From positions 1 to 10,268 of IMG/VR virus record IMGVR_UViG_2563366845_000009: a DNA stretch of 10,268 nucleotides; one strand, 5' to 3'. The position numbers were made by a program, and so were the translations under genes. Each line of letters begins with the position of its first letter. Within the stretch, counting starts at the first letter, position 1. The DNA is from a virus (lineage: Duplodnaviria > Heunggongvirae > Uroviricota > Caudoviricetes). Below are positions 1,979 through 10,268 of this stretch, piece after piece. Under the pieces are notes generated by a model. That model saw only the letters and a program-made list of their open reading frames with translations. It was not told the origin of the DNA and did no database searches.

Positions 1979-2260
1979 TGGTGTGAGGCGTAACGCGATG
2001 AACATAACAAAAAGCGCCCCGTTGCCGGAGCGCCCTTGCGAACAATTAACCTGCTGCGAAAAAAATGGATCAGTGCAGGGGAATTATATCAACCGTGTGG
2101 CGAAGCGCCACAATTGCCGGATAACAGGCAAAGAAAAGGCCACCAGTCACGGCGGCCCTGCGACACAAATTTCGCGTTATCCCCAACGCATGAGCATCGC
2201 CAACAATGCCACATTTGCGGCTGGTGGGCAATGTGATCAGTGTGCTGGCTTGCTGGTGGG

Positions 2261-2440
2261 CTATTCCTGCTCTTTGGCTTTGCGCCGCTGGCGGCGTTTG
2301 ATCTCGCCTTGCATTGACGCAATGATGAATTGTGATGTGCTTTCGCCTGATTCTTTCACTGATTCCATGGCGTTTACTATTTCGTGTGGTACACGAGCCT
2401 TTAGAGCTTGTGATTTTGCGTTTTTTGTACCCGTTGCCAT
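2261..2440 (-). CDS. Small ribbon-helix-helix (Arc/MetJ/CopG-like) DNA-binding protein, putative repressor
   Basis: Internal ATG of the 120-aa minus ORF at 2438-2440, preceded by GAGGAA (6-nt spacer); 59 aa, MATGTKNAKSQALKARVPHEIVNAMESVKESGESTSQFIIASMQGEIKRRQRRKAKEQE. Pattern is beta-strand (LKARVP), helix A, G-x-S turn (SGEST), helix B, then a basic tail. Transcribed divergently from the promoter at 2502-2541. Confidence 0.55.
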   Translation of the reverse strand: MATGTKNAKSQALKARVPHEIVNAMESVKESGESTSQFIIASMQGEIKRRQRRKAKEQE

Positions 2441-2501
2441 TTCTATTCCTCTGGTGGATTGGTGGGGGACAGTATACACAGAAAAAGCACAAATAAAACT
2501 C

Positions 2502-2541
2502 TTGACGTGGGCCACACCTAAAACATATAGTGGGCCACACC
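2502..2541 (+). promoter_or_regulatory. Candidate sigma70 promoter (TTGACG-N18-TATAGT) overlapped by two direct repeats of GTGGGCCACACC (putative operator)
   Basis: -35 TTGACG 2502-2507; -10 TATAGT 2526-2531; exact 12-bp repeats at 2507-2518 and 2530-2541 (23 bp centre to centre), each containing a GTGG..CCAC half-palindrome. Sits between the divergent RHH gene and the downstream + strand gene block. Confidence 0.45.
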
Positions 2542-2639
2542 TTGAAATTATCAAGGCGCATAAATGCAAAGCCCCGCAAGTGTCGTTACCACTCGCAGGG
2601 CTTCTAACCACCAACGATAGCAACGGTATCGAGGTAGCT

Positions 2640-3179
2640 ATGTTAAATCATACCACACACCCGCAAGGGTGGGACTCGCACAACCTGAATAAAGCGGGTA
2701 TGAAAAACCTGTTGATCGCCACTGCCAGCCAGGGCTATGATTTACCCGCACCAGCAAAATCTGGTGCCGGGATTGGCGTCCTGGTATTTAACGAAGCGCA
2801 CAACACGCGCCCTGCGTGTTTTTTTGTGCCGGATAGTCACACCTTATCAATGGTGGGCTGTATGGGGGCGGAGCAATCCGCGCCGGGTTCTTCGTTAACC
2901 GGTTACGCCAACCCTGTACAGTCCACCGCCAGCGAAATTGGCGTTTCCTGCGGTGGGTTTATTAAACCTAACGAAGAGGCTGCCAACATGGCTACTACCC
3001 CTACCCTTATACATTCCCAAACTGCCTTTATCTGGCGCTTTATCATCTTTGGCGCGTCAGAATCTCAAATCATCCACGTGACCGCCTGGACAGAACGCGA
3101 AGCGCGTAACCATTGCCCGTCCGGTTGTGTCGCTGTATTCGCCGCCCGTATTCGTCAGGAGGTGCGCCATGTGCAATAA
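2640..3179 (+). CDS. Hypothetical protein (179 aa), first gene downstream of the putative operator-controlled promoter
   Basis: ATG 2640 preceded by GAGG (5-nt spacer), in frame with the long 1983-3179 ORF whose 5' portion overlaps the antisense RHH gene and the promoter; typical coding composition; no recognisable motif. Alternative start at ATG 2700. Confidence 0.45.
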   Translation: MLNHTTHPQGWDSHNLNKAGMKNLLIATASQGYDLPAPAKSGAGIGVLVFNEAHNTRPACFFVPDSHTLSMVGCMGAEQSAPGSSLTGYANPVQSTASEIGVSCGGFIKPNEEAANMATTPTLIHSQTAFIWRFIIFGASESQIIHVTAWTEREARNHCPSGCVAVFAARIRQEVRHVQ

Positions 3180-3429
3180 CACCCGTCCGGATGCAACCAC
3201 CGAAGCTATCAAAACGCTGATGGATGCGCTGATTGATATTTCTGTTATCGCAGACAAAGCGCATAAGCACGCCACCACTGAAACAGAATATGCCGGGGCT
3301 TTCGTTCCTCACTCACTGGCTGTAATGCAACTTAGTGCTGATATGGCGCTGAATGAGGCTAAAGCCATCCTGATTGCTGATTGTGAAAATGGGGGGGGGT
3401 TATGCGTGATGATCGTTTTAATTCCCTGA
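3169..3429 (+). CDS. Hypothetical small protein (86 aa)
   Basis: Strong AGGAGG (3157-3162) 6 nt upstream of ATG 3169; overlaps the stop of the upstream gene (coupled). Its 3' end contains a G9 homopolymer (3391-3399). Confidence 0.5.
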   Translation: MCNNTRPDATTEAIKTLMDALIDISVIADKAHKHATTETEYAGAFVPHSLAVMQLSADMALNEAKAILIADCENGGGLCVMIVLIP

Positions 3430-3623
3430 AACAGGAATTTTCCGGCGTTCCTGATGATGCGGCTGATGCGCTTTCGTCAATATCTGAAATTATGCGGGTG
3501 GCTTTTTTCTTTCTTTGCACTGATGAGCACAGAGATACAGGGCTAAATATTCTTGATATTGCCGCTAACTATGCTGATTTCGTGACAGAAGCTGTTTTAA
3601 GAAAAACGACGGACGGGGATTAA
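3402..3623 (+). CDS. Hypothetical small protein (73 aa)
   Basis: ATG 3402 lies immediately after the G9 tract (G-rich ribosome-binding site); overlaps the previous ORF by 28 nt in the -1 frame; stop TAA 3621-3623. Confidence 0.45.
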   Translation: MRDDRFNSLKQEFSGVPDDAADALSSISEIMRVAFFFLCTDEHRDTGLNILDIAANYADFVTEAVLRKTTDGD

Positions 3624-3624
3624 T

Positions 3625-3858
3625 ATGCGTGATATTTACCACGAAACAATAGACCGCGCATTTCTTGCACTTTCTCACAGTGAAAGCATGATGGAAATAT
3701 TGCGCATATGGCTTGAAACACTTGGCGACAATGAACGCGACAAACAAAAATCAAGAATTGCCACGGCATTAATAACGCTTCTTGAGCCTGTAATAATGGA
3801 GCTACAAGAAATAGACCTATTGCACGACAGATATAAAGAACAGCACACCGGAGAATAA
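3625..3858 (+). CDS. Hypothetical small protein (77 aa)
   Basis: ATG 3625 is 1 nt after the previous stop, GGGGA 5 nt upstream; acidic/helical composition. Confidence 0.5.
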   Translation: MRDIYHETIDRAFLALSHSESMMEILRIWLETLGDNERDKQKSRIATALITLLEPVIMELQEIDLLHDRYKEQHTGE

Positions 3859-3863
3859 AAATA

Positions 3864-4163
3864 ATGAAACTTAAATATTCTGGCTTTACTGCCAGCGGCC
3901 CCGCTCGGCCTGAAATCCGCCCCGGCGATATTTTCAAAGATAAATACGGCGGCACTGTAACGATTAAAAGCGTGGCGGGACGGTGTGTTACTTACCGCCG
4001 TGATGGGTACGGCTATGACTGCGTGATGCCTGTTTATCAGTTCCGGCGTGATTTTTCTCTGGTACAGAACGCAACACGCGGTAAGCCCACCAGCAGGGAA
4101 AAAGCACGGGAAAATATTAAGAAAATAAAAAGCATGCTCAGCGCATCCAGAGGTAAAAAATGA
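3864..4163 (+). CDS. Hypothetical small basic protein (99 aa)
   Basis: ATG 3864 with GGAG upstream; stop TGA 4161-4163 overlaps the helicase ATG (ATGA coupling). Basic C-terminal tail. Possibly related to small proteins found upstream of replication genes in enterobacterial islands, but not verifiable here. Confidence 0.5.
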   Translation: MKLKYSGFTASGPARPEIRPGDIFKDKYGGTVTIKSVAGRCVTYRRDGYGYDCVMPVYQFRRDFSLVQNATRGKPTSREKARENIKKIKSMLSASRGKK

Positions 4164-5566
4164 AACTGGCACCGAACGTAAAACTGTTACCGAAAGATAA
4201 ACACACTGAGGCGGTTATTTTTGCGGGTGATAATGCTCACTCCTTTGCAGAACATTACATGATTGCACAGGCCAAAAAAGCAGGCGATCCCATCCCTCCG
4301 GTTTACCTGGGCCGTTATCAGTTAAGCGAACTGGACAATTTACAGATTGTTGATGAAGGACGATACAGAGCAAAGGTCATACGCGCCGGAAACCTGGACG
4401 ATATGCAGATGCTGACCATTGCCACCAAACTGGCGATCGCAGGTGTCCAGGAAGCACGGTTACTTTCAGAGAATTTCGAACTGCTGGAGGACTGGAGCGA
4501 GCAACTACCGCGGCTTAAAGAAACCTGGGAACGCGGGGAAAGTCTGGTCATGAATGGTGGAAAGCGAAAAATCACACTTCCCATCTCATGGGGTTCTGAG
4601 GGATTCGACGCGCAGCAAAGCTACGTAATTAAGGGGCTTATTCCGGCTGAGTCATTATGCAGCACCTACGGGGCCAGCGGTTCTTATAAATCGTTCCTGG
4701 CTATTTCCTGGTCGTGCCATGTTGCCACAGGTATGGCATGGGGAGGCCGCAGGGTAAGTAAGGGCGCTGTTATCTATATCGCTGGCGAAGGCAGTATGGG
4801 CGTAAAACGCCGCGTTAAGGCGTGGGAGATAACCCATGACAAGGTGGTTACAGATTTGTGCATCGTTAACGCGCCTGTCTTCCCCGCATCGCCTGACTAT
4901 GTGGAGCAGGTTATCAGGACTGCCGGACTTGTTAAGAGCAGAACGGGCGAAAATGTGCGGCTGATTGTGATCGACACGCTGGCCCGTTGCTTTGGTGGAA
5001 ATGATGAAAATGATTCCCGCGATATGGGCGCATTTATCCAGGGGTGTGACGCGATAAAGCAGGCCACAGGGGCCACGGTGCTGGTGGTTCACCATTCCGG
5101 CAAGGATGAAACAAAGGGGGCGCGCGGTTCCAGCGCATTCCGTGCCGCGCTTGATGCAGAGTACCGAATCAGCCGGGAAAATTCAGAGGTTACAGCACTG
5201 GTGGCGGCGTGTACGAAGATGAAGGACGCAGAGGAGCCAAAAGAGAGTGCATACGATCTTAAAAGCGTGGAGGTGTTCACCGATACAGATGGCGAAGAGA
5301 TTGTGTCCATGGTGGTGATTGACGTTCCCCGCGCCCCTGCTGAACTGGAGCGCATAGAGGAGGCCGGGAACAAGACGGAAAATCACACGGCTTTATGGGG
5401 TTGTATCCGGTCGCGTATACAGCATGGTGATAAATGTACGATCCCGCTGCTACGTGATGACATGAAAAAGCTGGGATATGACACAAAACACCTTAAACGA
5501 TGGTTAGCCAAACTGGAAAAAGACGGCGTGATTTGCGTCGATGGGGATGATGTTCACCCACTGTAA
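4160..5566 (+). CDS. Replicative helicase, RepA / AAA_25 (RecA-like, DnaB-superfamily) ATPase
   Basis: 468 aa; Walker A-like GASGSYKS, Walker B-like hydrophobic stretch ending in Asp (RLIVIDTLARCF), and the VLVVHHSGKD motif typical of RepA-type helicases; GAGG ribosome-binding site 6 nt upstream; followed immediately by the iteron array. Confidence 0.82.
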   Translation: MKLAPNVKLLPKDKHTEAVIFAGDNAHSFAEHYMIAQAKKAGDPIPPVYLGRYQLSELDNLQIVDEGRYRAKVIRAGNLDDMQMLTIATKLAIAGVQEARLLSENFELLEDWSEQLPRLKETWERGESLVMNGGKRKITLPISWGSEGFDAQQSYVIKGLIPAESLCSTYGASGSYKSFLAISWSCHVATGMAWGGRRVSKGAVIYIAGEGSMGVKRRVKAWEITHDKVVTDLCIVNAPVFPASPDYVEQVIRTAGLVKSRTGENVRLIVIDTLARCFGGNDENDSRDMGAFIQGCDAIKQATGATVLVVHHSGKDETKGARGSSAFRAALDAEYRISRENSEVTALVAACTKMKDAEEPKESAYDLKSVEVFTDTDGEEIVSMVVIDVPRAPAELERIEEAGNKTENHTALWGCIRSRIQHGDKCTIPLLRDDMKKLGYDTKHLKRWLAKLEKDGVICVDGDDVHPL

Positions 5567-6456: not shown

Positions 6457-6478
6457 CCGGGATTTTCCCGGTTTTTTT
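6457..6478 (+). terminator. Rho-independent terminator downstream of ssb
   Basis: Stem CCGGG(A)/(T)CCCGG (6457-6471) followed by seven T (6472-6478). Confidence 0.6.
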
Positions 6479-6527
6479 ACGGGTCCTCCCGGTGGAGTGG
6501 CCTTACCACGGGGCGGGAGCGGCGCGG
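6472..6527 (+). other. cos-like site, copy A (cosQ/cosN-like core with a divergent right half)
   Basis: 6472-6516 (TTTTTTTACGGGTCCTCCCGGTGGAGTGGCCTTACCACGGGGCGG) is identical to 9009-9053; the next 11 nt match copy B at 8 of 11. Contains dyad CCCGGTGG-N10-CCACGGGG and the ACG|GGGCGG junction resembling the lambda cosN nick site. Confidence 0.5.
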
Positions 6528-6865: not shown

Positions 6866-7075
6866 GTGAATTGTATTAATGACCTGAACACAGGCGAGGT
6901 AAGAGGTGGTTCCGTTCATCTGGATGCGCAGACCGTTATGCGCCTTAAGCAGTACAGGATCGACCACATAAATCATCATCCTGGCCAACCATTACCAGGT
7001 GTGGCGCAGATTGTCAGACACGCAGTTAACGCGTGGCTTGATAAGAATGGTTTTGCATCTGGGGGTGAGCAATGA
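6866..7075 (+). CDS. Hypothetical small protein (69 aa), translationally coupled to the protease-capsid gene
   Basis: GTG 6866 with GAGGA 7 nt upstream; stop TGA 7073-7075 overlaps ATG 7072; basic region (VHLDAQTVMRLKQYRIDHINHH) could bind nucleic acid. Confidence 0.5.
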   Translation: MNCINDLNTGEVRGGSVHLDAQTVMRLKQYRIDHINHHPGQPLPGVAQIVRHAVNAWLDKNGFASGGEQ

Positions 7076-8985
7076 ATCACTGGTACACCATTAAGGCGGC
7101 GGGTGTTCGCGGAGCGGCAGAAATATCCATCTATGAAGAAATTGGCGGCTTCGGTATCACCGCGAAGCAGTTTGCGGAAGACCTGAAAGCCCTGGGCGAT
7201 GTCTCACATATCGACCTGCGGATCCATTCGCCAGGTGGTGACGTGTTTGAAGGCATCGCCATCTATAACCTGTTACGGAATCATCCGGCAGAAATTACGG
7301 TTTATATCGATGGTGTTGCGGCTTCAATGGCTTCGGTTGTCGCAATGGCTGGCGATCGTGTTGTGATGCCGGAAAACGCCATGATGATGATACATAAGCC
7401 GTGGGGTATCTCTGGCGGAAATGCTGGTGATATGCGTGATTATGCTGATTTGCTGGATAAGGTGGAAACCGTGTTAATCCCTGCTTATGCCAGAAAAACG
7501 GGCAAATCAGCACAGGAAATTACCGCCATGCTGGAAGATGAAACCTGGATGGACGGGAAAGAATGCCTTAAGCAAGGTTTTGCTGATGAATTGTTGCCAT
7601 CCGTCAGAGCAATGGCGCGAATTGAATCGAAACGCACAGGAGATTTTTCACACATGCCGGAAACCATTAAAGGAATGATTACCCCGCCACAGGGAGCAGC
7701 CAATATTGCTGGTAATGAACAGAAGCGCATCAACGGAATAAGTGAAGTGTTTAGCCTGTTCGGCAGTCGTTACGACGGGATCAAAATGGCGTGCCTGGAA
7801 GATGCATCATGTACACCGGAGATGGCCCGTGAAAAGTTGTTGAACGAGATGGGGCGCGAGTCCACGCCATCAAATAAAAATACCCCGGCTCATATTTATG
7901 CCGGTAACGGGAACATAACAGGTGATGCAATTCGTCAGGGGCTTTATTCTCGTCTCGGGTATGAACGCCCAGAGCGGGGAAATCCTTACGCGATGATGAG
8001 CCTTTTTGAAATGGCCCAGGCATCACTAACGGATCGTGGTATCAGTGTTGGCGGTTTTTTAAATCGCTCGCAGGTCGTTAATGCAGCTTTCACACACAGC
8101 AGCAGCGATTTTTCTCATATTCTGGCTGGTGGTGCTGAAAAATCAGTACTGAAAGGCTGGCAGGACAGCGGCGAAACGTTTCAGAAATGGACGCGTACCG
8201 GATCGCTTTCAAACTTTCATGAAGCAAAGCGCGTTGGTCTGAATGGTTTTTCAAAGCTGGATAAAGTACCGGAAGGTGCGGAATATAAATACATCACCAC
8301 CAGAGATAAAGGTGTACCTATTGCGCTGGCCACGTACGGGAATATTTTTTCCGTTACCCGTCAGGCCATTATCAACGATGACCTGACCCAGTTAACTACA
8401 ATCCCCATGGCGATGGGGCGTGCGGCCGCCAGAACAGTAGGTAATCTGGTTTATCTTCTGTTAACCAGCAACGGCAAATTTACGGATGGTAAAGCGTTAT
8501 TCCATGCCGATCATAAAAATCTTATTGCGAAGGATATGGACATGGAGGGGCTTAACGAAGCCCGTAAGCTGATGCGACTACAGGAGGATGCCAACGGCGA
8601 CTCCCTGAATATTACCCCCGCTTTTGTTCTGGTCCCTGCTGCGCTGGAGTCTGCCGCACATCGCGCCATTCTGTCATCGTCATCACTCTTTCCGGTTGAT
8701 GGTGAGGGCACTATCAATCAGAACCCCGGCATCATTAACGTGGTGAAAGATATGGCTGAGGTTATTGTTGAGCCACGTCTTGATAAGAACAATAACAAGG
8801 AGTGGTATGTAGCCGCAGCGAAAGGGATGGACACGATAGAGGTCGCTTATCTTGATGGTATTGATACGCCATATCTTGAGGAGCAGGAGGGCTTTACTGT
8901 TGATGGTGTCGCCTGGAAGGTGCGCATAGATGCAGGTGTTGCGGCCCTCGATTATCGTGGACTACTGAAATCGAGTGGAGCATGA
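7072..8985 (+). CDS. Fused prohead protease (ClpP/S14-like serine protease) and HK97-fold major capsid protein
   Basis: 637 aa; N-terminal ~200 aa has the ClpP-like catalytic Ser context (GVAASMASVVAMAG) and His context (MMMIHKPWG); the C-terminal ~400 aa is consistent with a Mu gpT / HK97-type major head protein; an ORF of this length with no internal stops is strong coding evidence. Confidence 0.88.
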   Translation: MNHWYTIKAAGVRGAAEISIYEEIGGFGITAKQFAEDLKALGDVSHIDLRIHSPGGDVFEGIAIYNLLRNHPAEITVYIDGVAASMASVVAMAGDRVVMPENAMMMIHKPWGISGGNAGDMRDYADLLDKVETVLIPAYARKTGKSAQEITAMLEDETWMDGKECLKQGFADELLPSVRAMARIESKRTGDFSHMPETIKGMITPPQGAANIAGNEQKRINGISEVFSLFGSRYDGIKMACLEDASCTPEMAREKLLNEMGRESTPSNKNTPAHIYAGNGNITGDAIRQGLYSRLGYERPERGNPYAMMSLFEMAQASLTDRGISVGGFLNRSQVVNAAFTHSSSDFSHILAGGAEKSVLKGWQDSGETFQKWTRTGSLSNFHEAKRVGLNGFSKLDKVPEGAEYKYITTRDKGVPIALATYGNIFSVTRQAIINDDLTQLTTIPMAMGRAAARTVGNLVYLLLTSNGKFTDGKALFHADHKNLIAKDMDMEGLNEARKLMRLQEDANGDSLNITPAFVLVPAALESAAHRAILSSSSLFPVDGEGTINQNPGIINVVKDMAEVIVEPRLDKNNNKEWYVAAAKGMDTIEVAYLDGIDTPYLEEQEGFTVDGVAWKVRIDAGVAALDYRGLLKSSGA

Positions 8986-8992
8986 CAACAAG

Positions 8993-9015
8993 GGCGGCGA
9001 TAGCCGCCTTTTTTT
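8993..9015 (+). terminator. Rho-independent terminator downstream of the capsid gene
   Basis: GGCGGC-GATA-GCCGCC perfect 6-bp stem (8993-9008) followed by seven T (9009-9015); the T-run is also the first 7 nt of the cos repeat. Confidence 0.6.
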
Positions 9016-9090
9016 ACGGGTCCTCCCGGTGGAGTGGCCTTACCACGGGGCGGCAGACGCGCGGGTTTTCGCTATTTATGAGCCTTTTTC
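9009..9090 (+). other. Lambda-like cos site, copy B (cosQ/cosN plus proximal cosB), directly upstream of the small terminase gene
   Basis: Window CCACG|GGGCGGCAGACG|CGCGGGTTTTCGCTATTTATGA (9043-9082) compared with the lambda left end as recalled from memory (GGGCGGCGACCT CGCGGGTTTTCGCTATTTATGA): predicted 12-nt cohesive end GGGCGGCAGACG (9048-9059), followed by a 22-nt match to lambda. Upstream TACGGGTCCT matches the lambda right-end motif. Confidence 0.65.
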
Positions 9091-9192
9091 GGGTGCTGGT
9101 GGTGGTTTTGTTGTTCGCTCTATCTCTATGAATAAAAAGGGAAAGATAAAACAAATACACCAACCTGAAACATTACTTAAGTGGGGATATTG

Positions 9193-9735
9193 ATGAAATC
9201 GCACCTGATGAACAAAAAAAACATGGCGCAAAGCTGCCGTGTAAGTGCGACAGCGTTCGACAAGTGGGGAGTGACTCCCGTTGAACGTAAAGGCCGCGAG
9301 GCGTTTTATGATGTTGCCAGCGTAATAGACAATCGGGTTAGCAATGCAATTAACCAGATTACAGACGACAAAGGCGAGATTGATAATGATGAGCTTTTGC
9401 GAGTCAGGATCAGATTGCTGACAGCGCAGGCGGAGGCGCAGGAGCTTAAAAACGAGCGCGAACGCGGCGACGTGATTAGTACGGAATTTTGTATATATGC
9501 GCTTTCAAAACTGGCGAGTCAGATTTCATCTATCATGGACAGCCTGCCGCTTACCATGCAAAGGCGCTTCCCACAGATGACCCCCGCCATGCTGGATGGC
9601 CTGAAAAAAGAAGTTGTCAGAGCCTGTAACGCATGCACAAAACTTGATGAAAACATCCCGCGAATGCTGTCCGATTATCTGATGGAAACTACCGGAAATG
9701 TGTCTGATAAGTTTCAGCCGGATAAAGACAAGTAA
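9193..9735 (+). CDS. Terminase small subunit, lambda Nu1-like (winged-HTH cosB-binding)
   Basis: By recollection of lambda Nu1: LLTAQAEAQELKNERERGDVISTEFCIYALSKLASQISSIMDSLPLTMQRRFPQ aligns with RLTRAQADAQELKNARDSAEVVETAFCTFVLSRIAGEIASILDGLPLSVQRRFPE, and LDENIPRMLSDYL with LDELIPGLLSEYI. Start is ambiguous (GTG 9181, ATG 9193, ATG 9208); 9193 gives 180 aa. Confidence 0.85.
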   Translation: MKSHLMNKKNMAQSCRVSATAFDKWGVTPVERKGREAFYDVASVIDNRVSNAINQITDDKGEIDNDELLRVRIRLLTAQAEAQELKNERERGDVISTEFCIYALSKLASQISSIMDSLPLTMQRRFPQMTPAMLDGLKKEVVRACNACTKLDENIPRMLSDYLMETTGNVSDKFQPDKDK

Positions 9736-9776: not shown

Positions 9777-9896
9777 CAGCGTTGCGCTGGTGGGAGTTAT
9801 GCGTCAGTGATGAACAAAAAATAATCGAAATCGACACCGAAAAATAAAACATCAAGTCATATCAATATATTGCATTGGTGGTGATGACGAATAAAA

Positions 9897-10268
9897 ATGC
9901 AAAAACTAGCCTTTTTCCGCGATGCTCCCGCCCCGTGGCAGGGCACCCCACCAGGAGGACCCGCCATCACTATGGAGGCCATGACCATGACCGAGACCGA
10001 AGCGCTCGGGATAATCCGCAGTATTACCGGAATCAGCCAGCAGGCTGACGAACAGGCCACGCAGCCGGATACAGTCACCGCTGAAAATTACGCGCGTGTG
10101 ATGGCTGAGGTGATGCGCCGTGACGGTATCGAGCTTAATGGCGTGGATATACGCAACATACGCACCAGAGTTCTGGAGATGTTGTCGTACCGTCGCCGCG
10201 TGCAGATGTACCAGGAGAAAGAAAAAATTACGTACCAGTGGAAGAAGCCGGAGCGGTTACGGCGATAA
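9897..10268 (+). CDS. Hypothetical protein (123 aa from ATG 9897; alternative 98-aa start at ATG 9972)
   Basis: Open frame ending at TAA 10266-10268; ATG 9897 has no Shine-Dalgarno; the in-frame ATG 9972 has AGGAGG (9953-9958) but a long 13-nt spacer. No recognisable motif. Confidence 0.4.
   Translation: MQKLAFFRDAPAPWQGTPPGGPAITMEAMTMTETEALGIIRSITGISQQADEQATQPDTVTAENYARVMAEVMRRDGIELNGVDIRNIRTRVLEMLSYRRRVQMYQEKEKITYQWKKPERLRR

Follow-up and report, generated by a model that had tools for sequence, protein, structure and literature searches.

A C4-type antisense RNA cassette and a coupled block of small genes upstream of the helicase gene in a phage-inducible chromosomal island of Escherichia coli

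What is encoded by the five small open reading frames (ORFs) that lie between the regulatory region and the helicase gene of a phage-inducible chromosomal island (PICI) of Escherichia coli? The window analyzed here, the whole 10,268-nucleotide stretch of the IMG/VR record IMGVR_UViG_2563366845_000009, is 100% identical to the chromosomes of E. coli RM11911 and RM13752 save one base, and its sequence identifies it as an E. coli PICI at a tRNA-Pro gene with the Gram-negative PICI layout. A first-pass annotation of this DNA had listed ORF1 (2640-3179), ORF2 (3169-3429), ORF3 (3402-3623), ORF4 (3625-3858), and ORF5 (3864-4163), all on the plus strand, as five unassigned, tightly coupled genes, and had proposed that a novel system is most likely to hide there. 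All five ORFs were confirmed, each with an ATG start, and the early genes that lie from the regulatory region to the helicase gene proved to form a tightly coupled and conserved block. The picture of five unassigned genes has to be replaced: ORF1 consists mostly of RNA genes, ORF2 and ORF3 belong to one family, and ORF5 belongs to the RgdR family. I propose that the region 2640-4163 is probably an immunity-gated early operon that feeds the replication genes. Observed in the sequences are the RNA genes, their targets on the ribosome-binding site of an Icd-like gene, the covariation between the two, the coupling to the helicase gene, and a conserved open frame that starts from alpA. The gene-silencing and override steps are drawn from homology with P1 immI and P4.

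The RNA cassette nested in ORF1

It was found that a complete set of RNA elements is nested inside ORF1 on the plus strand. An isrK-like leader RNA, the equivalent of the seqA region of P4, lies at 2748-2824 (Rfam RF01394, 80 bits against a gathering threshold of 50), together with a match to the c4-a1b1 target model at 2735-2787 (RF03163, 44.5 bits). A C4/CI-type antisense RNA follows at 2846-2933 (RF01695, 75.3 bits against a gathering threshold of 45), and the match covers the full length of the model (1-87). The leader contains an intrinsic terminator at 2802-2826, in which a stem (2802-2820) is followed by a T-run. The cassette also has its own promoter-like site, TTGATC-18-TATGAT (2712-2741), from which transcription is predicted to start at about 2748, where the isrK match has its first base. 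Eight related islands show no change in the -10 hexamer, and seven of them retain the -35 hexamer, while the spacer varies.

In the minimum free energy fold of the C4-type RNA, a loop a′ (2889-2898) and a bulge b′ (2905-2911) are single-stranded. Loop a′ is exactly complementary to two sites, a1 in the leader (2788-2796) and a2 downstream (2969-2977); bulge b′ is likewise exactly complementary to b1 in the leader (2773-2779) and b2 downstream (2938-2944). The complements are 7-9 nucleotides long. Site a2 overlaps the Shine-Dalgarno (SD) sequence GAAGAGG (2973-2979) of an Icd-like ORF, 8 nucleotides before its ATG at 2988.

Are these pairings maintained in evolution? The sample consisted of the eight related islands, among which there are five distinct sequences of the loop and three of the bulge. 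Compensatory changes were found in six of the nine pairs of helix a′-a2 (97% paired), in four of the seven pairs of helix b′-b2 (100% paired), in seven of the nine pairs of helix a1-a′, and in four of the seven pairs of helix b1-b′. As a whole, the four intermolecular helices are 94-100% paired, versus 32-50% with slid partners, and none of 500 shuffles reached the observed covariation score. The stems of the C4 RNA itself also covary across the related islands. The immunity RNAs c4 of P1/P7 and CI of P4 are built in this way. Mageeney et al. 2023 (PMC10111431) had already noted that some Gram-negative PICIs have C4 and isrK matches of Rfam, which may provide immunity.

The downstream target belongs to a 63-residue Icd/Kil-like peptide gene (2988-3179, plus strand), which is a real gene nested within ORF1. 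It matches NCBIfam NF033153 with 59.7 bits against a cut-off of 25, it corresponds to the PGAP coding sequence (CDS) WP_243559753.1, and it is represented in PHROGs by phrog_29966 and phrog_1743. Its ratio of nonsynonymous to synonymous polymorphism (pN/pS) in the related loci is 0.40. The peptide starts with MATTPTLIH, to be compared with MATTLTPSH for the Kil protein of P4, and the whole ORF1 translation is 32% identical to the old "cI" ORF (cI/Kil) of P4.

ORF1, 179 residues in all, holds the RNA cassette as an in-frame segment of about 109 codons (about 2694-3020). In those related islands where the cassette is missing, the Icd-like gene starts from the ATG and SD sequence of ORF1. In such C4-less loci, the conserved sequence ...IEVAM(R/L)NHTTHPQG...SHNLNK runs straight into IWRF..., which gives the cassette the look of a segment inserted in frame. 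It is present in only about 13 of 85 related islands, so that the idea of the cassette as a universal part of the operon was rejected. In one of the carriers, locus L006, the cassette follows a truncated extra copy of the Icd-like segment. With its own promoter, the isrK/C4 cassette behaves as a mobile in-frame insert in the Icd-like gene.

Could ORF1 instead be a genuine 179-residue Ash/Icd-like protein, with the RNA-family matches being incidental? The first-pass annotation saw no recognizable motif in these ORFs, which is wrong for ORF1: residues 36-125 (nucleotides 2745-3014) match Pfam Phage_ASH (PF10554) with 57.7 bits against a gathering threshold of 26, and the ORF matches the Icd-like family of NCBIfam with 56.8 bits. 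The ORF also has a good SD sequence and an ATG at 2640 which are conserved in relatives, its frame is stop-free in eight islands, and PGAP annotates a 159-residue Icd-like CDS in RM13752. On the other hand, the cassette part has a pN/pS of 0.82, and its variable columns are spread almost equally over the codon positions 1, 2, and 3 (43, 40, and 45, respectively). Thus, a third-position bias, the mark of protein-like evolution, is lacking from the stretch matched by Phage_ASH in these eight islands, while the RNA stems and the four intermolecular helices show compensatory changes. Moreover, the Phage_ASH match in P4 (locus L007, 8329-8521, ORF residues 22-85) covers the P4 CI RNA. Since Phage_ASH matches the RNA region here and the CI RNA in P4, the family seems largely to model a translated RNA gene, and on this sequence evidence I regard the "Ash family protein" annotations in the same way. 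The same DNA is annotated by PGAP in RM11911 as an "ash family" pseudogene plus a 63-residue Icd-like CDS. The frame may well be translated through, yet the peptide sequence of the cassette is not under selection, and I consider a genuine ORF1 protein to be highly improbable.

It was revealed that ORF1 and the Icd-like ORF are nested in frame in a much longer stop-free frame of 398 codons (1983-3179, plus strand), of which ORF1 is the 3′ part. This frame opens 5 nucleotides after the stop of alpA (1978) and ends at the stop codon of the Icd-like gene, as an analog of the eta frame of P4. Is the open frame common among relatives? Over 300 codons upstream of icd, this frame has zero stops in 40 of 76 related loci, versus 12-25 in each other frame, and most of the remaining loci have another single frame that is nearly open. 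In some relatives (e.g., L024 and L032), a Bro-N domain was seen at the start of the long frame. My reading, an interpretation of these patterns, is that the long frame may be kept open for the passage of ribosomes rather than for the peptide encoded by the cassette. Ribosomes crossing the frame have been reported for P4 eta (summarized in PMC10111431).

The long frame runs antisense through the YlcI/YnfO gene (2261-2440, minus strand). Across this gene, the antisense frame has 0 stops in 33 unique sequences, versus 85-119 in each other frame. The possibility that either ylcI or the long frame is an artifact of the other was considered and dropped: both frames are open, and the pN/pS values of the overlap (0.50 sense versus 0.57 antisense) cannot separate the two because, as I read the geometry of the overlap, they share wobble positions. 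It appears that two overlapping antisense frames are both kept open here.

The coupled genes and the variable G-run

How are the following ORFs connected to the Icd-like gene? The overlapping and abutting stops and starts described in the first-pass annotation were confirmed directly in the sequence. ORF1, and with it the Icd-like ORF, overlaps ORF2 by 11 nucleotides, ORF2 overlaps ORF3 by 28 nucleotides, ORF3 and ORF4 are separated by one nucleotide (TAATATG), ORF4 and ORF5 by five nucleotides, and ORF5 shares an ATGA with the helicase gene. The proposal of credible ribosome-binding sites also held. SD-like sequences were seen as GAGG 5 nucleotides before the ATG of ORF1 (2640), AGGAGG 7 nucleotides before that of ORF2 (3169), GGGG about 7 nucleotides before that of ORF4 (3625), and GGAG before that of ORF5 (3864); ORF3 has a G-run alone, 2 nucleotides upstream. 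For the four protein genes, such a layout lies far outside what chance would give. In about 80 related islands, the frames of the Icd-like ORF and of ORF2 to ORF5 have 0 stops and pN/pS values of 0.33-0.47, whereas the other two frames of the same genes have values of 0.94-2.0 and tens to hundreds of stops. The Icd-like ORF, ORF2, ORF3, ORF4, and ORF5 are real protein genes under purifying selection.

The block is also conserved as a unit, as a check of conservation and synteny across related islands revealed; the lack of conservation that the first-pass annotation had named as a refutation was not seen. The order Icd-like gene, ORF2, ORF3, ORF4, ORF5, replicase gene, small hypothetical gene, and single-stranded DNA-binding protein (SSB) gene is kept in about 80 IMG/VR loci, and the same block order was found in the annotated E. 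coli islands examined, with mosaic allele identities. The DNA of ORF2 and ORF3 is present in 1104 of 5426 complete E. coli genomes. The replicase of the related islands is either a RepA-type helicase or a primase-family protein, and the allele classes of ORF4 and ORF5 occur with both types, W12-1 being among the examples. The block thus forms a constant core and is no hotspot of variable cargo.

From their sequences, ORF2 and ORF3 are two modules of one helical protein family, phrog_2512. ORF2 (pN/pS 0.33) is the N-terminal helical-hairpin module, whose stand-alone form is phrog_5146, and ORF3 (pN/pS 0.37) is the C-terminal helical module, whose stand-alone form is phrog_24341. Between them, a poly-G tract of nine residues (G9; 3391-3399, plus strand) marks the domain junction, and a fused or a split product results according to its frame state. 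In the window, ORF2 carries nine extra out-of-frame codons past the G-run. In RM11911 and RM13752 the tract is G10, which is the sole difference from the window, and ORF2 and ORF3 are fused into a CDS of 151 residues. The low-confidence AlphaFold structure of the fused protein consists of two helical hairpins, that of ORF2 being formed by helices at residues 9-37 and 39-73 in the AF2 model, with a disordered linker (74-98) at the G-run; the predicted local distance difference test score (pLDDT) is 59 and the predicted template modeling score is 0.44. An idea that ORF2, ORF3, and ORF4 are paralogous repeats was discarded (hhalign probability below 1%).

The length of the G-run was counted in 81 IMG/VR loci containing the junction. 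G7 (23 loci) and G10 (4 loci) give a fusion, where the ORF2 frame reads through; G8 (35 loci) and G11 (2 loci) give two genes with a ATGCGTGA overlap; and G9 (17 loci) gives the arrangement of the window. An ATG arises from the AAT before the tract together with the first G (3389-3404). At G8 and G11 this ATG is in frame with ORF3, which then starts with MGGVMRDD..., while at G9 it opens only a short dead-end peptide. The G-run differs in length inside seven of eleven groups of loci with identical 455-nucleotide flanks. Among the best 120 of 487 relatives of the ORF2-ORF3 protein (E ≤ 0.001), nearly all are fused proteins of 148-161 residues, the exceptions being two partial sequences and three of 224 residues, and their junctions read GG, GGG, or GGGG. 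It is either hypermutable or error-prone in sequencing.

Is the split of ORF2 and ORF3 in the window then a homopolymer sequencing error, the true state being G10 and one gene of 151 residues? It is known that long-read assemblies often miscount homopolymers. Over 10 kb, a single extra G is all that distinguishes the RefSeq sequences of RM11911 and RM13752, both second assembly versions, from the window. However, the out-of-frame states G8, G9, and G11 make up 54 of the 81 independent IMG/VR loci, and two genes are annotated in the complete genome of W12-1. When the representatives at 50% identity were searched exhaustively, only 62 clusters were obtained, mostly stand-alone N-halves or C-halves, and PHROGs also keeps each half separately. 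The stand-alone C-half representatives begin at profile position 79, which is the methionine of ORF3, and both halves occur in several allele classes that reassort. Taken together, the spread of G lengths, the W12-1 annotation, and the stand-alone halves indicate that the split state is real in the family even if the window is erroneous. For the window itself, an error may be the explanation, and I hold it to be slightly on the improbable side.

The variable tract resembles phase-variable contingency loci in being a coding homopolymer of 7-11 G residues whose length varies between otherwise identical sequences. Here, however, a frame change turns one two-domain protein into two coupled polypeptides, since an ATG follows the tract in every state; with both halves encoded in all frames, the tract is not an on/off switch of the classical kind.

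No gene of the block is more conserved than ORF4 (77 residues, phrog_2196, pN/pS 0.36): identity is 92-99% in the best 120 of 526 clusters, and the named sources are all Escherichia. No Pfam domain and no structural relative of ORF4 were found in the searches. ORF5 (99 residues) is the second ORF for which the absence of motifs did not hold, as it belongs to the DUF4222/RgdR family (Pfam PF13973, 86.7 bits against 27). It shares its position with the DUF4222 gene of CP-933C-type islands. Its orthologs include RgdR (ECs1581) of the O157 island CP-933C/OI-51 and c1493 of CFT073 (PMC3378721). Expression of ECs1581 or c1493 was reported to increase LEE1 (locus of enterocyte effacement) expression and type III secretion and to decrease motility, with weak and non-specific DNA binding (PMC3378721; PMC10877973). 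The RGD tripeptide of RgdR (residues 20-22) is important for the activation of type III secretion. ORF5 of the window has P20-G21-D22 instead, and its relatives have RGD, CGD, SGD, or NGD. The predicted structure of ORF5 is a small five-stranded β-barrel (residues about 23-68) resembling Tudor or KOW domains, followed by a basic C-terminal helix; its fold matches are small barrels of a generic kind, and Foldseek gave no match in the PDB at E ≤ 0.001. My best guess, from the RgdR phenotypes and the fold resemblance, is that ORF5 modulates transcription by contact with a protein or with RNA polymerase.

The homology searches that had been suggested for the block by profile and structure thus gave families for ORF1 and ORF5, and for ORF2/ORF3 and ORF4 only PHROG families without an assigned function. 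In fact, all ORFs of the block were placed in such PHROG families. A search for relatives of solved structure by sequence gave none for ORF2-ORF3, ORF4, and ORF5, the sole match being a chance match of ORF4 with E 0.9. No experimental work on ORF2/ORF3 or ORF4 was found in the literature searched.

A proposed immunity gate on the early operon

How might the switch and the coupled genes work together? In the resting island, transcripts from the internal promoter would mostly stop at the leader terminator. Read-through past this terminator would supply the C4-like RNA, which would mask the start of the Icd-like ORF and block its translation. Since the downstream genes are coupled to the Icd-like ORF, transcripts from the internal promoter would either terminate or remain untranslated; ORF2, ORF3, ORF4, ORF5, and the RepA helicase would stay silent, and the island would not replicate. 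When a helper phage turns on alpA, AlpA-driven transcripts from upstream would be translated along the 1983-3179 frame. The ribosomes traversing the RNA cassette would override the block and translation would enter the coupled genes, so that the early genes and replication are turned on. ORF2/ORF3, fused or split according to the G-run, ORF4, and ORF5 would act as early accessory factors. AlpA is known as the helper-induced activator in EcCICFT073 (PMC6092414).

Several points weigh against this proposal. The promoter, the transcript ends, the way in which the RNA is processed, and the step involving Rho or polarity are predictions. With the C4 cassette in only about 13 of 85 related islands, the early operon must usually be regulated without it, and other controls, namely a YlcI-type ribbon-helix-helix protein with its repeats, and AlpA, probably contribute here too. 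In Gifsy-1 of Salmonella, the short IsrK RNA activates downstream translation (PMC4825925), and the sign of the leader effect is therefore not certain. The long frame, which is putatively translated, runs antisense through a real-looking ylcI. The tests that were run give no biochemical function for ORF2/ORF3 or ORF4, the structure model of ORF2-ORF3 is of low confidence (pLDDT 59), and the matches to the ORF5 fold are generic, none in the PDB by Foldseek reaching E ≤ 0.001.

Do ORF2 to ORF5 encode replication accessory proteins, for example an initiator that binds the origin, a loader for the helicase, or a partner of the primase? Their place directly upstream of the replicase gene and their translational coupling to it, through the ATGA of ORF5 and repA, would suit such a role, as would the same order before the replicase in all related islands. 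However, the same allele classes of ORF4 and ORF5 occur with RepA-type helicases and with primase-type replicases, and thus there is no co-variation with the enzyme to be loaded. In addition, RgdR and its CFT073 ortholog change LEE and motility genes when expressed alone, which points to transcription, and the fold matches are generic. This explanation seems somewhat unlikely to me.

The idea that five separate genes form a novel system for helper interference, derepression sensing, or anti-defence, the suggestion of the first-pass annotation, was also weighed. In P4, the helper-derepression gene epsilon lies directly after kil, which is the position of the genes in question here. The allelic classes of ORF2 and ORF3 reassort as is expected when partners vary, and ORF2/ORF3 and ORF4 have no assigned function. 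But RNA genes make up most of ORF1, a single family in fused or split form accounts for ORF2 and ORF3, ORF5 falls in the RgdR/DUF4222 family, and about 80 islands share the block as a constant core. None of the six proteins of the block matched any family of the PADLOC-DB defense models (E ≤ 0.01), and the profile comparison with P4 epsilon was insignificant (probability 9-15%). What stands from the suggestion is the part about immunity or induction sensing, in the form of the C4/CI-type switch; a defense or anti-defense signature was not found by PADLOC. ORF2/ORF3 and ORF4 may still have a role directed at the helper. A novel system in this region is quite unlikely, since the switch is of the known P1 c4 or P4 CI kind and the block is a constant core.

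In the proposed early operon, two features leave room for a bolder combination: that the G-run slips rapidly and toggles a fused or split early protein with different behavior, and that translation of the 398-codon frame antisense to ylcI serves solely to bring ribosomes over the switch. I consider both together rather unlikely. If this were true, the fused and split forms could differ in helper recognition, induction timing, or stoichiometry, island populations would hold a heritable and reversible mix of G-run states, and the frame would be a second, independent "translate to anti-terminate" device like P4 eta, in a PICI. No description of a variable G-run at a domain junction or of the open frame antisense to ylcI was found in limited literature searches.

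Related immunity regions and the rest of the island

The closest known system is the immunity region of P4, followed by P1 immI and the Gifsy-1 isrK locus. The P4 region consists of PLE, seqA, CI RNA, seqC, and the nested kil/eta, and then epsilon, orf151, orf106, and alpha. It gives the same three Rfam matches in the same order upstream of the kil start (74.9 bits for the CI RNA). The order in the two elements is also alike, with an AlpA/Vis homolog, at whose stop a long frame opens, then an isrK-like leader, the C4/CI RNA, a start with MATT as in Kil, small ORFs, and a replicase gene, and in both a target site lies on the ribosome-binding site of the Kil/Icd gene. The P4 eta frame opens at the stop of orf88 and ends with Kil, just as the frame of the window opens at the stop of alpA. 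In contrast to P4, the window has a RepA helicase, SSB, a ClpP-capsid fusion, and a small terminase (TerS), with no sid/delta/psu or alpha primase, and its frame is twice as long (398 versus about 199 codons) and crosses, in antisense, a YlcI/YnfO gene, which P4 lacks. Are the post-Kil proteins homologous? The BLASTP matches of ORF2, ORF3, ORF4, and ORF5 to epsilon, orf151, and orf106 were all short and weak. Against P4 epsilon (PF25738), hhalign gave probabilities of 15% (ORF2) and 8.7%, over 24 columns, with no Pfam match, and ORF5 against the N-terminus of orf151 gave 7.5%. Homology of these proteins was rejected at the detectable level, and the matches are leads only.

In P1 immI, the C4 antisense RNA acts on the ribosome-binding site of icd, and icd is coupled to the downstream gene. 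The P1/P7 immI locus (c4, icd, ant) is like the window in having a C4-family RNA with a′ and b′ segments, a and b targets duplicated upstream and downstream, a downstream target on the ribosome-binding site of icd, and an Icd-like first ORF coupled to later genes. The differences are that the cargo of the window is a replication operon while that of P1 is an antirepressor, and that an intrinsic terminator in the isrK-type leader stands between the promoter and the C4 RNA of the window. The Gifsy-1 isrK-orf45-anrP locus shares an isrK-family leader with a leaky terminator, read-through to a small ORF, and coupling by AUGA (PMC4825925). There, however, the short IsrK activates translation in trans and the cargo is an antirepressor (PMC4825925), whereas the leader of the window has C4-complementary sites and the cargo is replication genes. 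Finally, EcCICFT073 and CP-933C (OI-51) have the same order of int, alpA, small ORFs, the DUF4222 gene, the replicase gene, and SSB; the O157 island CP-933C differs in lacking the C4 cassette and in having the fused G7 form of ORF2-ORF3.

The island itself, as annotated in RM11911, is flanked by tRNA-Pro/yejM on one side and yejO on the other. With its tRNA site, int, alpA, RepA, SSB, a ClpP-major capsid protein fusion, and TerS, it fits the Gram-negative PICI type, an island of about 10 kb at a tRNA or attB site that has int, alpA, a replication module, and packaging genes but lacks lysis and tail genes. The integrase gene is at 1-1242, AlpA at 1772-1978, the RepA-family helicase (PF13481 AAA_25, 147.7 bits, and PGAP annotation) at 4160-5566 on the plus strand with the SSB gene downstream, the ClpP-like prohead protease fused to the major capsid protein at 7072-8985, and the small terminase at 9181-9735. 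No portal, large terminase, or head-tail connector was found inside the island limits as seen in RM11911, and the capsid module is far more reduced than in the described capsid-forming PICIs.

The divergent region between ylcI (minus strand) and ORF1 contains another promoter-like site on the plus strand, TTGACG-18-TATAGT (2502-2531), which matches 10 of 12 consensus positions. It is overlapped by two tandem 22-nucleotide operator-like repeats, GTGGGCCACACCTAAAACATAT (2507-2528) and GTGGGCCACACCTTGAAATTAT (2530-2551). The repeat core GTGGGCCACACC is confined to related loci with a YlcI at least 96% identical to that of the window, which suggests that the repeats and YlcI are a cognate operator and repressor pair. 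By its sequence pattern, YlcI looks like a ribbon-helix-helix protein. It is likely that YlcI and the repeats at 2502-2551 add a further layer of control.

Two other kinds of element were seen outside the block. A near-perfect palindrome of about 42 nucleotides (1666-1707; AAAAACAGTGAGTACCGTTTTAAA and TTTAAAACGGTGGGTACTGTTTTT) lies about 65 nucleotides upstream of alpA and is a candidate site for AlpA autoactivation or for a helper-encoded inducer. An element of about 55 nucleotides occurs in three copies that are 89-95% alike (6472-6527, 9009-9064, and, inverted, 9891-9944), placed after the SSB gene, the capsid-fusion gene, and the small-terminase gene, and translates into the recurring pseudo-peptide "LRVLPVEWPYHGAG" in the ORF list. 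These elements could be terminators, late-promoter or activator sites, or packaging signals.

What does the locus mean for the biology of these islands? Gram-negative PICIs have been described as fundamentally different from P4 and without a known repressor (PMC6092414). The C4/isrK type of switch is already known in Gram-negative PICIs, and is documented in detail here. For annotation, the identical sequence is labeled in two ways by PGAP, and the "Ash" calls seem for the most part to describe an RNA gene in translation. The variable G-run at the domain junction would be a simple example of how slippage splits and fuses a gene. The block also ties the virulence regulator family RgdR to a conserved PICI early operon, and therefore induction of the island would co-express a modulator of LEE and motility genes. 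This island shows that a PICI can carry a complete RNA immunity device of the P4/P1 type. Since at least five loop specificities covary with their targets, the device could set mutual exclusion among islands and hold replication until a helper arrives.

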